A stretch of DNA of 64,000 nt from a virus. The DNA is taken from positions 1-64,000 of IMG/VR virus record IMGVR_UViG_3300035142_000037, one strand, 5' to 3'. Of the stretch, positions 26,777-33,858 are shown piece by piece. Position 1 is the first letter of the stretch. Each line of letters starts with the position of its first letter. The position numbers were made by a program, and so were the translations under genes. The notes under the pieces were generated by a model. The model ran no database searches. It was not told the origin of the DNA and saw only the letters and a list, made by a program, of their open reading frames with translations.

Positions 26777-28354
26777 ATGCATAGGACAGAAGGCGAAAAT
26801 GCTGTGCTTGATTTAAATGGGCATAGAATATATACAGAAGGTCCACCACCAACCACTATTACAGCAGCAAGTTTAAATGCGCTACAAGAAGAAATTTGCC
26901 ATGTAATTGAACAGGCAGGATTTACACTAAAAACAGCACAAACAGATACGCATACGCAATTATATGAAGCTATTGCGACATTGGGCAATCCTTACGATTA
27001 CGTAGTATATAGTAATCCTACTTTTTTAGATGCAATTGAAAGAGTGGCAGCAAATCAATATAAATTCAAGGATAATATTGAATCAATACATTTCAAATCT
27101 TCTGAATATTCGATGTCTTATGTTTTGTCAGGCGGGGATACATGGGGATATCTTGAAACAAATCAATGCAAATATATAGATTTTGAAATGGGCGCTTATA
27201 TTAATATGGGAAATGAACGGGGATATATTGAAGCAAACACAGAAGGATGTTTGTTGCAAAACGTAAGTATTAGAGGGCTTGGCACTGTTGCTTCTGCAAT
27301 TGCAAGGTCATATTTATTGAATGCTAGTTATGTCACATTTAATAATTGCGATTCTCAAATCAGATTAACAAATACTGATTGTATTGTATTTGAAGGATCA
27401 GGAACAAGCTTACATAATGATACTTCGGTTTATAATGGATGTAAGGTGATCAACTTTACTTCATCTAGTGGAAATTTAAATATTATGAAGGATACAAAGA
27501 ATGTAAGTAACTTCATAATATATGATATTGAATCTACTTCTGGAAGTGCTTTTGATAATATTTTTATAATGGAAAATTGTTATAATTGCAATAACATAAC
27601 GGTTAAAAAAATTGATCATAGCGGAAGTGGTGATATAGTCGGGATTAAGAACTGTTATAATGTTTCTAATATTTATATAGAAGATGTCGACGGAAATGAT
27701 GATTTTTTCGGAATATCCTTAAGTTATTTTTTAAGTAATATATATATAATAGACATAGATATGGGCGATTCTTGTTTTGGAATTTATAGTGGTGGAAATT
27801 TTACAAATGTATACGTAGCAGATATGACTGGGGTAGTTTGTTATGGATTTTATAGTCCTGGGTTACTTTGGGGCTTGAATAATTGTAAGGCCATTCAATT
27901 AGATGCAACTGGAAATTGCTATGGATTTTATAACTGCGCCAACTTATCAAGTTGTTATGCAGAGGATATAGATAGTTCCGGTGGTAATTATCATGGATTT
28001 TATCAATGTAATCAATTATCTTCCTGCTATGCAACAGATTGCGAAGATGGATTTAATACATGTAAGCAAGTAACTGGATGTCAAGCTGAAGCAAATGATA
28101 ATGATGGATTCAATGATTGTAATAATATAGCAGGGAGTCGGGCAACATCAAACGGTAACGATGGATATAATACTTGCACCTGCATATCAGCTTGTCGGGC
28201 AAATACCAATACAGGAAATGGCTATAATGGTTGCAATACCATGACGGCGAATAGAGCAGCCGGGAATACAGCAGCACAGTATAATAATTCATTTGCCGAT
28301 CTTGCGGGATTAAATGCATGCGCTGACACCTCGTTAGGCGGTTATAATGGATAG
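26777..28354 (+). CDS. tail fibre / receptor-binding protein with Cys-rich C-terminal repeats
   Basis: 525 aa; N-terminal ...SLNALQEEICHVIEQAGF.L......QLYEAI fibre motif; C-terminal about 20-aa repeats G(F/Y)..C..(L/I)..C.A. Confidence 0.65.
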   Translation: MHRTEGENAVLDLNGHRIYTEGPPPTTITAASLNALQEEICHVIEQAGFTLKTAQTDTHTQLYEAIATLGNPYDYVVYSNPTFLDAIERVAANQYKFKDNIESIHFKSSEYSMSYVLSGGDTWGYLETNQCKYIDFEMGAYINMGNERGYIEANTEGCLLQNVSIRGLGTVASAIARSYLLNASYVTFNNCDSQIRLTNTDCIVFEGSGTSLHNDTSVYNGCKVINFTSSSGNLNIMKDTKNVSNFIIYDIESTSGSAFDNIFIMENCYNCNNITVKKIDHSGSGDIVGIKNCYNVSNIYIEDVDGNDDFFGISLSYFLSNIYIIDIDMGDSCFGIYSGGNFTNVYVADMTGVVCYGFYSPGLLWGLNNCKAIQLDATGNCYGFYNCANLSSCYAEDIDSSGGNYHGFYQCNQLSSCYATDCEDGFNTCKQVTGCQAEANDNDGFNDCNNIAGSRATSNGNDGYNTCTCISACRANTNTGNGYNGCNTMTANRAAGNTAAQYNNSFADLAGLNACADTSLGGYNG

Positions 28355-29147: not shown

Positions 29148-29172
29148 AGGCAGCCGTGTGCTGCCTTTTTTT
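29148..29172 (+). terminator. intrinsic terminator
   Basis: AGGCAG-7nt-CTGCCT followed by T7. Confidence 0.7.
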
Positions 29173-29176
29173 ATGC

Positions 29177-29325
29177 TTGACTTTTTTTCCGGTATCTGAT
29201 ATATTATGTATGTGTATGTACCGGTTTGCTTCATATGATACTCCTTTGTATTTTTCTCCTTTCTTCTTAGCATACACATTTATCCGGTTCGGCAGTTCCC
29301 CCATTCTGCCGACCGGAAATTTTTG
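29177..29325 (+). promoter_or_regulatory. promoter TTGACT-16-TATATT + leader with 12-bp hairpin and U5
   Basis: Hairpin TCCGGTTCGGCAG/CTGCCGACCGGA at 29283-29317 followed by AATTTTT, upstream of 29341. Confidence 0.5.
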
Positions 29326-29340
29326 AAAGGCGGTTGAATA

Positions 29341-29589
29341 ATGAAAATTAAAAAAGGACCTGCATTTCTTATAACTCATATAACTTTTTTCGTTATGTTT
29401 CTGCTGATAGTTTTTTTTGCTCCGGATCAGTTGCTTGCAGCCGGGGTCCCGATCATACTCGCAATGGCGGCTAATATAGCCCAGTTCTGCGGGTTCCAGG
29501 TGGCTGACAACTGGCAAAAGGGGAAAAATTATCACTGGGAATTAGACAGTAACATGAAAAGCAAAACGGAAAAGATTGACTATAATTAG
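29341..29589 (+). CDS. holin-like two-TM protein
   Basis: 82 aa, two hydrophobic helices, first gene after a promoter, upstream of a peptidase gene. Confidence 0.45.
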   Translation: MKIKKGPAFLITHITFFVMFLLIVFFAPDQLLAAGVPIILAMAANIAQFCGFQVADNWQKGKNYHWELDSNMKSKTEKIDYN

Positions 29590-29603
29590 GAAGGACAGGG
29601 GAA

Positions 29604-30140
29604 ATGAAATGGCAAAGAACACTTATATTATGTATAGTATTATCCTTATTATCGGGTGCTTGTTATGGGCTGGAATCGGATACTGCATCTGTTTTACAAT
29701 TCAATCCGGAAAACTGCGTAATGTCCAGGCCAGTGAAAAATTACTTTCTGAACAACTTGAATCAGCAATTGCAACTATTGACCGACTTAACACAATTAAT
29801 GATATTAATAAATCCAGGATCGAAAGAGATGCAGAAACTATTGAGCAGCTACAAAGGGATATTCACGATACAAAGGAAAATTATAGAGAACTTGAACAGC
29901 AAAATAATCGACTCGGAGAAGCAAATAACCGACTTACAGAGCTCAAACGAAGAATGGAAGAAAGAGAACGAAAAGCAGGCGAAATTATTGAACAGCTTAG
30001 AGGAAAAGTTGAGCAATTCAGAGCAGATATTGAAGCGATACCAGAGACGTATATGGATTGAGAGGGTGAGCCTGATAACGGTGGCCGTGGCTGCGGTTAT
30101 ATGGGGAGCGAGACAAAGGAGGTATAAATGGAACGATTGA
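29604..30140 (+). CDS. alternative-frame ORF: signal peptide/lipobox-like N-terminus and C-terminal hydrophobic segment
   Basis: 178-codon ORF fully overlapping 29609-30061 in another frame; N-terminus MKWQRTLILCIVLSLLSGAC; fills the otherwise non-coding 30062-30127. Confidence 0.35.
   Translation: MKWQRTLILCIVLSLLSGACYGLESDTASVLQFNPENCVMSRPVKNYFLNNLNQQLQLLTDLTQLMILINPGSKEMQKLLSSYKGIFTIQRKIIENLNSKIIDSEKQITDLQSSNEEWKKENEKQAKLLNSLEEKLSNSEQILKRYQRRIWIERVSLITVAVAAVIWGARQRRYKWND
29609..30061 (+). CDS. N-terminal TM + coiled-coil protein (lysis accessory / i-spanin-like architecture)
   Basis: ATG at 29609, GGGG 8 nt upstream; purine-first, A/T-third codon pattern through the coiled-coil part. Confidence 0.55.
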   Translation: MAKNTYIMYSIILIIGCLLWAGIGYCICFTIQSGKLRNVQASEKLLSEQLESAIATIDRLNTINDINKSRIERDAETIEQLQRDIHDTKENYRELEQQNNRLGEANNRLTELKRRMEERERKAGEIIEQLRGKVEQFRADIEAIPETYMD

Positions 30141-30550
30141 AAAAACATAATATAATTAAGCGTATCACAATAAGCCTGATACTGGTTATAATTAATTTAG
30201 GATTATTCTGGCTTATAAGTTCTGCTTATAACATAATGGATATCCTGGATACCCGAAATCATGAGACAGAAGCACGAATAGTTTTTTATGCCATTGTATA
30301 TATAGCGGTTATTTTGAATGGCATGTTTATTTATCACCTGCCCAACTGGGTAGATTCCTGGGTGAAAGGGCAGGGCAAGTGGCATCTTGAGCATACTATA
30401 GCTTATTATAATAATATACTTGACAGAGATGAGGCAGAGCCTATTACTTTGAAGGGTATTTATAATGAGAATAAATCGAGAATTGAAGGTGCTTTAAAAA
30501 AAGCATTGATAGGTGAGAAGAATCTTAAAAAAATAGGAGGTAAGGAATGA
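30128..30550 (+). CDS. membrane protein (2 TM)
   Basis: 140 aa, AAGGAGG SD. Confidence 0.5.
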   Translation: MERLKKHNIIKRITISLILVIINLGLFWLISSAYNIMDILDTRNHETEARIVFYAIVYIAVILNGMFIYHLPNWVDSWVKGQGKWHLEHTIAYYNNILDRDEAEPITLKGIYNENKSRIEGALKKALIGEKNLKKIGGKE

Positions 30551-31170
30551 AAAAGGTTAATGGAGAAAATATATATTATAGTCAGAAAAATAATGCATTT
30601 GTCGAAGTATTTCAAGATTATTTTTTTCGGGAATATGAAAAGGTAAGAGGGGAAGCAACCGGGGAGGTTAAAAAGACTTTAGATGACCTTCGTAGAAAAA
30701 TATTTCTACACGTCACATGTTTCCCTACCAGTATGGCGGATGGTATACATTCATGTGGCTGGCCGATGGATATTTTCCCTCCAGGTTTACAGCCCGAAGA
30801 TGGGATTATGTGCATACTTAATAACCCTGTGATTGCAAAAAAATTACACCAGGGTTCTCGATACGTACCGCCATCCTGGGCGTATAATGAGATACCGGAT
30901 TATTATCCTACTGCAATTAATGCAGCATGGGGAAATAAGCAGGTATGCAAATTTGAGCGAAATATTACAATACAGGAATATTCCGGGTATATCGATCATG
31001 GTTATTGCATAGCATATGCGCATCCTGGACATGTTATAATAGGGAAGGGGTATGATATTGTGAATGGCAAGACATTTAGGGTTTACAATGATCCATATCG
31101 AAAACCTAAAATGATAGAACCTGCGAAAACATTAGCCTGGGGAGTAGTGATTTTTCCGTTCCAAAAATAA
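30547..31170 (+). CDS. putative papain-like cysteine peptidase (candidate endolysin)
   Basis: 207 aa; candidate Cys (..HVTCFPTS..) and His (..HPGHVIIGKGYD..NDPY) arrangement; last gene of the membrane-protein cluster. Confidence 0.45.
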   Translation: MKKVNGENIYYSQKNNAFVEVFQDYFFREYEKVRGEATGEVKKTLDDLRRKIFLHVTCFPTSMADGIHSCGWPMDIFPPGLQPEDGIMCILNNPVIAKKLHQGSRYVPPSWAYNEIPDYYPTAINAAWGNKQVCKFERNITIQEYSGYIDHGYCIAYAHPGHVIIGKGYDIVNGKTFRVYNDPYRKPKMIEPAKTLAWGVVIFPFQK

Positions 31171-33258: not shown

Positions 33259-33585
33259 ATGAAATTATATCACGCAACCCCAGAAAAATATTCTAACGAT
33301 ATCGGAAAGTATGGTCTTAGACCAAACGAATCTATCAAAAAATCAAATGATACAAGATTGAACATAGAAGCAGTTTACGGCTTTATCGATCAGGATAGTG
33401 CAATCAATTTTGCAATAGATAATTGCTGGGAATCATTTACGGTTTTTTGTTTTGATACTGGTGAAAACGAAGTAATTGAAGACACGGAATATGACGGGGA
33501 ATCAATAGCTGTTTTGACTGAAGAAAATATACCAGTATCGGCGATATCTGTAAAATATGATCATGGGATGAAAGTGAAAGAATAA
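33259..33585 (+). CDS. hypothetical protein
   Basis: 108 aa, AAGGAGGG SD; N-terminal KLYHAT...YGL.P. Confidence 0.55.
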   Translation: MKLYHATPEKYSNDIGKYGLRPNESIKKSNDTRLNIEAVYGFIDQDSAINFAIDNCWESFTVFCFDTGENEVIEDTEYDGESIAVLTEENIPVSAISVKYDHGMKVKE

Positions 33586-33595
33586 GGAGGAATGT

Positions 33596-33754
33596 ATGAA
33601 GAAAGAAATTGATGTATATAAATTTATCGATAGCCTCAATTTATCTGAAAAAGAAAAATTAGAACTTGCAAGCAGGATTATGCTTTATCTTACGTGGGAT
33701 ACGGAAAAACAAGAATATAATGATATTTACGAGAGTATAGAAAAAATAAAATAG
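33596..33754 (+). CDS. hypothetical small protein
   Basis: 52 aa, AAGGAGG SD. Confidence 0.45.
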   Translation: MKKEIDVYKFIDSLNLSEKEKLELASRIMLYLTWDTEKQEYNDIYESIEKIK

Positions 33755-33858
33755 CCATCACAGGGAAACAACACAGTAACCATGCTGGCGACACGGTACC
33801 GAGACCGTGTGTTTCCGTATTTTGCCGGCGGGCAGAAAACGCAGAAAGGCAGGTTATT

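Follow-up and report, generated by a model that had tools for sequence, protein, structure and literature searches.

A fully overlapping pair of coiled-coil membrane genes in a phage lysis cassette: a possible spanin-like pair without a conserved lipobox

Introduction

Two-component spanins pair an i-spanin, which has a single N-terminal transmembrane (TM) helix and usually a coiled-coil periplasmic domain, with an o-spanin, an outer-membrane lipoprotein recognized by its lipobox Cys. The two are encoded in +1/-1 frames, and in the embedded arrangement, with Rz1 in the +1 frame of Rz, the o-spanin is a short proline-rich peptide (PMC6139136; Cahill et al., PMC5295617). In about 70% of embedded cases the start of the o-spanin falls 0.4-0.5 of the way along the i-spanin (PMC6139136). 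In overlapped spanins of the P2 LysB/LysC type, the second gene extends past the end of the i-spanin gene. Unimolecular spanins (u-spanins), such as those of the T1 gp11 and PB1 families, combine a lipoprotein signal with a C-terminal TM segment, and their ectodomains are rich in beta-sheet and free of Cys (Kongari et al. 2018, PMC6139136). No spanin was found in 91 of 677 surveyed genomes, and a type I membrane protein with a C-terminal TM segment was named as a possible spanin subunit that had not been searched for (Kongari et al., PMC6139136). This raises the question of how a phage lacking a lipoprotein spanin breaches the outer membrane, on which the gene pair described here may bear. A literature search, outside of which most subscription journals lay, found no paper describing the arrangement.

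Results

The window (the whole stretch of DNA that was analysed, 64,000 nt of IMG/VR record IMGVR_UViG_3300035142_000037) covers nearly the whole of a phage genome of 64,542 bp, which is complete, has direct terminal repeats and encodes an HK97-type capsid. An earlier note, made from the sequence alone, had drawn attention to an ATG at 29604 opening a 178-aa open reading frame (ORF) whose stop ends at 30140, and an ATG at 29609 opening a 150-aa ORF whose stop ends at 30061. We recovered both as it described them, including the 79 nt by which the first, here gene A, runs past the stop of the second, gene B (Table 1). The two overlap over 453 nt, with A in the +1 frame of B, and they are the sole same-strand overlap of at least 270 nt between ORFs of at least 90 aa in the genome. 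In front of them stand tandem Shine-Dalgarno (SD)-like sites, AGGAAGGA spaced for the ATG of A and CAGGGGAA for that of B, with anti-SD duplex energies of -6.0 and -6.5 kcal/mol.

Table 1. Features of the overlapping gene pair and its surroundings in the window.
Feature	Position	Strand	Remarks
Terminator; sigma70-like promoter; leader hairpin then U-rich run	29148-29166; 29177-29205; 29283-29317	+	z -2.9
Two-TM holin-like ORF	29341..29589	+	82 aa; called by shape and position only
Tandem SD-like sites	29588..29603	+	one spaced for the ATG of A, one for that of B
Gene A	29604..30140	+	178 aa; 163-175 aa in relatives; open in 8/8 sequences
Predicted signal peptide of A	29604..29669	+	residues 1-22; from hydropathy and alignment of signal ends
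Gene B	29609..30061	+	150 aa; i-spanin-like type II membrane protein (predicted); open in 7/8 sequences
N-terminal TM helix of B	29639..29695	+	best 19-mer, residues 11-29
Helix break of A (Pro71)	29811..29822	+	P-x-S-x-E conserved in 7/8 sequences
C-terminal hydrophobic helix of A	30051..30110	+	residues ~150-169; after a basic stretch and Trp-Ile-Glu-Arg; mostly beyond the stop of B
Two-TM ORF	30128..30550	+	140 aa; variable slot; in L002 an apparently unrelated 129-aa TM gene
C39-like (papain-fold) peptidase	30547..31170	+	207 aa; conserved Cys58 and His162; candidate endolysin

A stop-free alternative frame of 178 codons had been called unexpected, and simulation bears this out. When either protein was recoded with the genome's codon usage, the stops that arose in the other frame averaged 13.6 for B and 11.9 for A, not one trial in 5000 kept that frame free of stops, and the longest open shifted-frame run among 48 other long ORFs of the window was 84 codons. 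The earlier note had also proposed that coiled-coil codon bias might create the second frame by chance. We reject this, since 12-14 stops would be expected in the other frame; the absence of any stop-free recoding and the 84-codon maximum elsewhere leave such a bias without explanatory power. Two other origins were discarded as well. A programmed -1 frameshift between A and B fails as a general mechanism, for the X XXY YYZ motif is missing from the window, L001 and L002 and no such site is common to all sequences, and A and B do not align as paralogues (HHalign probability 15%).

Seven relatives of the pair were found; they fall into four lineages and are not seven independent samples. L001 and L002 are close relatives; L005 with its cluster mate L008-L010, L006 and L007 are distant; and L012 was found through its capsid gene, with the pair in the same slot as in L005 and L006 and profile E values, among the fetched loci, of 1.3e-9 for A and 0.005 for B. 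A contig sharing its 3' junction with L001 (X2) was left out as an independent relative, and a 5994-aa repetitive match (P0004) was discarded. Among the sequencing runs listed as containing the sequence, none was an RNA run. A is 84, 76, 36, 34, 36, 32 and 21% identical to that of the window in the seven relatives, and B is 85, 80, 31, 30, 30 and 24% identical in six. None of the eight sequences departs from the register, A lying in the +1 frame of B throughout, and 4-7 nt separate the two starts, whichever comes first (offsets -5, +4 and +7 nt). SD-like sites accompany the starts in seven of the eight and are weak in L002, where the ATG of A overlaps the upstream stop. The pair family is absent from the capsid relatives G004 and G005; no matches turned up in GTDB genomes, either with A4 or with the capsid alignment, or in metagenome contigs, and cultured phages gave no match to relatives of A or to the peptidase.

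Both frames are stop-free in seven of the eight sequences, against 10-16 stops expected per frame. The earlier note had offered stops in the 29604 frame of homologues as a way to refute its reading; that frame has none in any of the seven relatives. The only stops are in frame B of L007 (L007:1111-1539), where two in-frame TAA codons (1213 and 1219) follow directly after the TM segment, against 18 stops expected. L007 retains both starts, strong tandem SD sites and 105 intact codons downstream despite these stops, which may be a recent loss leaving a 34-aa membrane peptide or may belong to a defective contig of 2.9x coverage. Because B is broken there and A is kept, either B may be dispensable or the contig may be faulty.

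We also compared substitutions in the two frames, pooling the window/L002 and L005/L006 comparisons. Within the overlap, differences at positions 1, 2 and 3 of the A codons number 36, 51 and 56, so the usual third-position excess is missing; it is present in the single-coding neighbours (capsid 38/20/154, protease 37/12/106, peptidase 66/52/120). Among isolated changes, those non-synonymous in both frames are depleted, with 13 seen and 21.2 expected (p 0.015). Tested on isolated substitutions, A is significantly constrained given B (p 0.018), and for B given A the signal of constraint is borderline (p 0.075). All indels between close pairs are multiples of 3.

Codon usage divides along the overlap, as the earlier note had seen in third positions: A is favoured over the first 100 nt (log-RSCU 0.27 vs -0.06) and B through the coiled coil (0.17 vs -0.17). 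Over the coiled coil, codon usage in four genomes is genome-like for B and atypical for A, and that of A falls below every other long ORF of the window. By the usual overprinting argument, the frame with genome-like codon usage is the older one. B would thus be the older frame, with A overprinted on it, because the usage of B is typical and that of A is not. The atypical usage of A, together with the interruption of B in L007, would also be expected if a single frame were translated and the other were a by-product of coiled-coil codon bias. This is very improbable. In three lineages neither frame has a stop, where 10-16 would be expected in either; both starts, both hydrophobic anchors and the register persist at 21-36% identity; and gene callers choose B in some relatives and A in others, public calls keeping B in the window and L001 and A in L005-L010. 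We regard it as highly probable that both frames are protein-coding, and from these alignments A and B appear to be a clear case in which selection has maintained two proteins of about 150 residues on shared bases through deep divergence.

The earlier note gave the 29609 product an N-terminal TM helix and a coiled coil, and both hydropathy and the structure model agree. The TM segment of B has a Kyte-Doolittle mean of 2.5-3.5 in all sequences, and the predicted structure is a continuous helix of ~120 residues with a heptad pattern, reaching residue 142 (pLDDT 84.5). Six of seven B members match phrog_739 (Rz-like spanin), the best at E 1.4e-6, and four further Rz-like PHROGs were matched more weakly. 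Since coiled coils show loose similarity to many families, we take these matches to speak for shape more than for descent. With its predicted N-terminal TM helix, continuous helix and weak Rz-like matches, B looks like an i-spanin. A lipoprotein reading of B was considered and rejected: in members of the window clade Ile-Ile-Gly-Cys17 fits a canonical box, but the hydrophobic run goes on for some 12 residues after it, and the box is absent in distant members. Separately, a Gly-hydrophobic-Cys motif occurs at the end of the TM segment of B in six of eight sequences (window:29675-29692), possibly a site of disulfide dimers by analogy with the lambda spanins.

The predicted layout of A runs from a signal peptide through a helical rod, hinged at a proline, and a basic/aromatic stretch to a C-terminal hydrophobic helix. 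An AlphaFold model (pLDDT 68.8) is all-helical, with helices at residues 42-69 and 74-170 and a linker before the first. The N- and C-terminal motifs quoted in the earlier note are present as given. Its placing of the C-terminal hydrophobic segment exactly in the otherwise intergenic 30062-30127 is correct in that the segment lies mostly beyond the stop of B, but the helix itself spans ~30051-30110. The 17-residue Kyte-Doolittle mean of this helix is 1.5-2.3 in all eight sequences, and the last 7 residues of A are a window-specific run into the next gene, L001 and L002 stopping straight after the helix. Fold searches with A were uninformative: the best BFVD match had E 0.12, Atlas structure matches were generic helices, and the Atlas feature search returned only unnamed viral clusters, below the level of reliable recognition. 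Charge complementarity between the A and B rods is not conserved, and a prediction of the complex of their ectodomains scored 0.24 against a mark of 0.32, which counts neither way.

The signal ends of A align as CYG, LYS, LHS and CFS, followed by acidic or polar residues, and the signal peptide is most likely of the signal-peptidase-I type, judging from this alignment. The proposal that the 29604 product is a lipoprotein is not supported by the family as a whole. The box at Cys20 is non-canonical, with Ser at -3, and is not conserved: A of L005/L008 has no Cys between residues 8 and 155, and A of L006 and L012 has no lipobox. In the window, L001, L002 and L007 the hydrophobic core closes with Ala-Cys, and a relaxed lipobox pattern is passed in the window and L001 only; lipidation of Cys20 could still occur in the window's own clade. 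No lipoprotein candidate besides A was found in the genome. One alternative builds on Cys20, with A working alone as a helical unimolecular spanin lipidated there in the window clade and B as an older, optional i-spanin. It would explain why A is intact in all eight sequences while B is broken in L007, and it would give a role to the Ala-Cys and the relaxed box. We consider it unlikely, given the distant members without Cys or lipobox, an ectodomain that is all-helical and carries Cys38 in the window, unlike the u-spanins of PMC6139136, and a B frame that stays stop-free in three lineages. As a separate observation, an ORF of 121 aa located ~0.8 kb before the pair in L001 (L001:2833-3198) has a canonical lipobox; it is found in L001 only and is absent from the window.

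By our reading of the ORFs, a contractile-tail module ends near 28354, and the pair lies just after the tail genes in a unit made up of the 82-aa ORF, A and B, the 140-aa ORF and the 207-aa peptidase gene. The promoter boxes and the leader hairpin are conserved in L001, and from these sequence signals the lysis cassette appears to be its own transcription unit. The 5' part of the leader (CCGG near 29221) could pair with the downstream hairpin strand (window:29177-29317), an alternative pairing that would put the lysis genes under a checkpoint of their own. The 82-aa ORF gave no significant Pfam or PHROG match. A similar small TM gene is directly upstream of the pair in L001, L005/L008, L006 and L007, making, with the window, five of seven distinct loci with a holin-like gene there and leaving L002 and L012 without; its stop overlaps the start of A in all holders except the window. 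The peptidase was assigned from ESM Atlas feature and structure matches (TM 0.70 to a Peptidase_C39_2 cluster), PF13529 falling below the cut-off. L002 has a 56% identical copy downstream of the pair. In L007 an M15 peptidase is encoded two genes upstream of the pair, and L005/L008 have an amidase ~4 kb upstream; the genome of L012 yielded no identifiable endolysin.

Two further genes near the cassette may be mentioned. Between the tail genes and the lysis promoter of the window is a 125-aa ORF with an N-terminal TM segment (window:28684-29061) and a weak match to the unnamed phrog_20965 (E 0.008). In five relatives, and not in the window, the cassette is preceded by a gene for a coiled coil with a C-terminal TM segment (L001:3202-3534, L005:4289-4690, L006:1331-1756, L007:83-376 and L012:4236-4673). 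That of L005 has a weak hemolysin (XhlA-like) PHROG match (E 0.002), and the gene may, from its layout, encode a second holin-type component.

The surroundings of the pair differ markedly between phages. L001 shares the promoter, the holin-like gene and the pair with the window at ~90% nucleotide identity, and its structural genes look to be of another type. In L005, L006, L008 and L012 the pair is between portal and head protease, with a lambda-type capsid in L005, L006 and L012. On this distribution, the pair seems to behave as an exchangeable lysis module moving between unrelated phage types. Its place inside the head module of these four loci could instead point to a membrane job outside lysis, for instance superinfection exclusion or a membrane-linked step of virion assembly, the more so as the holin-like and endolysin labels in the window are based on shape and fold only. 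Such a non-lysis job for the dual-coded pair strikes us as improbable, because the pair travels with the small two-TM gene between phages of differing head and tail gene types and has an M15 peptidase two genes away in L007. A role in lysis is probable.

Among sequenced phages, the closest terminase is that of a Thermoanaerobacterium phage, at 44% identity, and matches of the terminase, amidase, M15 and PseB to cultured phages are distant only. A spirochaete host, guessed from the style of the signal peptide, found no support: Leptospira phage LE3 lacks such a pair and shares no protein at E 1e-4, and no alignment was obtained between its cysteine-peptidase-like gene and the window peptidase.

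Discussion

The likeness to embedded Rz/Rz1 spanins that the earlier note saw stands in part. As in lambda, B is predicted to be a type II membrane protein whose coiled coil is extracytoplasmic, its +1 frame encodes another envelope protein, the two are placed among lysis genes, and B has weak matches to Rz-like PHROGs (PMC6139136; Cahill et al., PMC5295617). B has the single N-terminal TM helix and the coiled coil of an i-spanin, its topology being predicted, and the two-frame architecture of a two-component spanin is seen in all eight sequences. The geometry of starts and ends is where the likeness breaks down, since adjacent starts with complete overlap differ from the geometry catalogued in PMC6139136. 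A starts 4-7 nt from B, is longer than B, and ends in a hydrophobic helix beyond the stop of B; it is a coiled-coil rod and not a short proline-rich peptide, and it has a C-terminal TM segment and no conserved lipobox Cys. The second gene extends past the end of the first as in P2 LysB/LysC, but here the overlap takes in essentially all of B and A is not a lipoprotein.

The same note suggested that A alone resembles a unimolecular spanin. Like T1 gp11 and the PB1 family, A has a predicted N-terminal export signal and a C-terminal hydrophobic helix. It departs from them in lacking a conserved lipoylation Cys, in an ectodomain that is all-helical where those of u-spanins are beta-sheet-rich (Kongari et al.), in the ectodomain Cys of the window clade, and in being encoded atop a second membrane protein. 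With neither a conserved Cys or lipobox nor any beta-sheet, A is neither a u-spanin nor an o-spanin. The pair is built like an embedded two-component spanin, yet by definition it is not a member of that class, for A is not the lipoprotein that an o-spanin has to be.

We propose that A and B could form a lipoprotein-independent spanin-like pair, a counterpart of Rz/Rz1, a reading that we hold to be evenly balanced. The two proteins would probably be made together, as they come from one 450-nt segment with two starts 5 nt apart, and probably late in infection. B would be an i-spanin-like type II inner-membrane protein with an extracytoplasmic coiled-coil rod, and A would be exported by way of a signal peptide that is cleaved off, with its C-terminal hydrophobic helix as anchor. 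Most likely, the pair would act in place of a two-component spanin, with no lipid anchor involved. Once the holin-like protein and the peptidase have acted, the rods of A and B would pair and draw the two membranes together. In the simplest geometry the C-terminal helix of A would engage the outer membrane and the rods would zip antiparallel, setting the C-terminal anchor of A beside the N-terminal anchor of B. At 1.5 A per residue, ~120 helical residues would make a rod of ~18 nm if the models are right, and by analogy only, the proline hinge and the basic/aromatic stretch of A would fit a membrane-joining role. Whether the pair disrupts the outer membrane is, in our judgement, a matter on which the scales are about level.

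The weak step of this model is the location of A. A signal peptide followed by a C-terminal TM segment normally makes an inner-membrane protein, and ordinary sorting would leave A there, with both subunits in the inner membrane and none in the outer. The main rival to a spanin-like reading follows from this topology: A and B would both stay in the inner membrane as lysis accessories with no outer-membrane role, in a host that is possibly monoderm, and may act as a partner or timer of the holin or as a scaffold for an exported endolysin. No lipoprotein is conserved, L002 and L012 carry the pair without a holin-like gene in front, and the closest terminase comes from a Thermoanaerobacterium phage, though at only 44% identity. 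We still find this rival less likely than the spanin-like reading, as the architecture of B and its weak profile matches are those of i-spanins and the length of the rods suits a periplasm-spanning role.

Returning to the spanin-like reading, we suggest tentatively that the pair represents one family of a third, so far undescribed type of spanin, in which overlapping coiled-coil membrane proteins with adjacent starts and protein anchors only would fuse or breach the envelope. On such a reading, A may have arisen by end-to-end overprinting of an i-spanin gene and, going by L007, may be able to work alone. A fully overlapping pair escapes both gene callers, which keep one frame (B here, A in distant relatives), and searches for lipoboxes. 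If the pair were to rescue a lambda Rz/Rz1 mutant, it would provide a lipid-free bacterial membrane fusion system and a rule for searching phages in which no spanin is found.

Other genomes yielded two observations of a related kind. In Leptospira phage LE3, an unannotated stretch (L031:32228-33840) is a likely lysis cassette, with a Cys/His peptidase-like gene and small TM genes. The protein encoded in its last part (33472-33840) combines a hydrophobic C-terminus with a lipobox-like Cys and is a possible u-spanin-like candidate. In another genome (G003), a 321-aa DNA cytosine methyltransferase-like gene (L018:830-1795) contains almost the whole of a 318-codon open +1 frame that starts 4 nt later (L018:834-1790), an overlap that recalls the two-frame arrangement of M.EcoHK31I.
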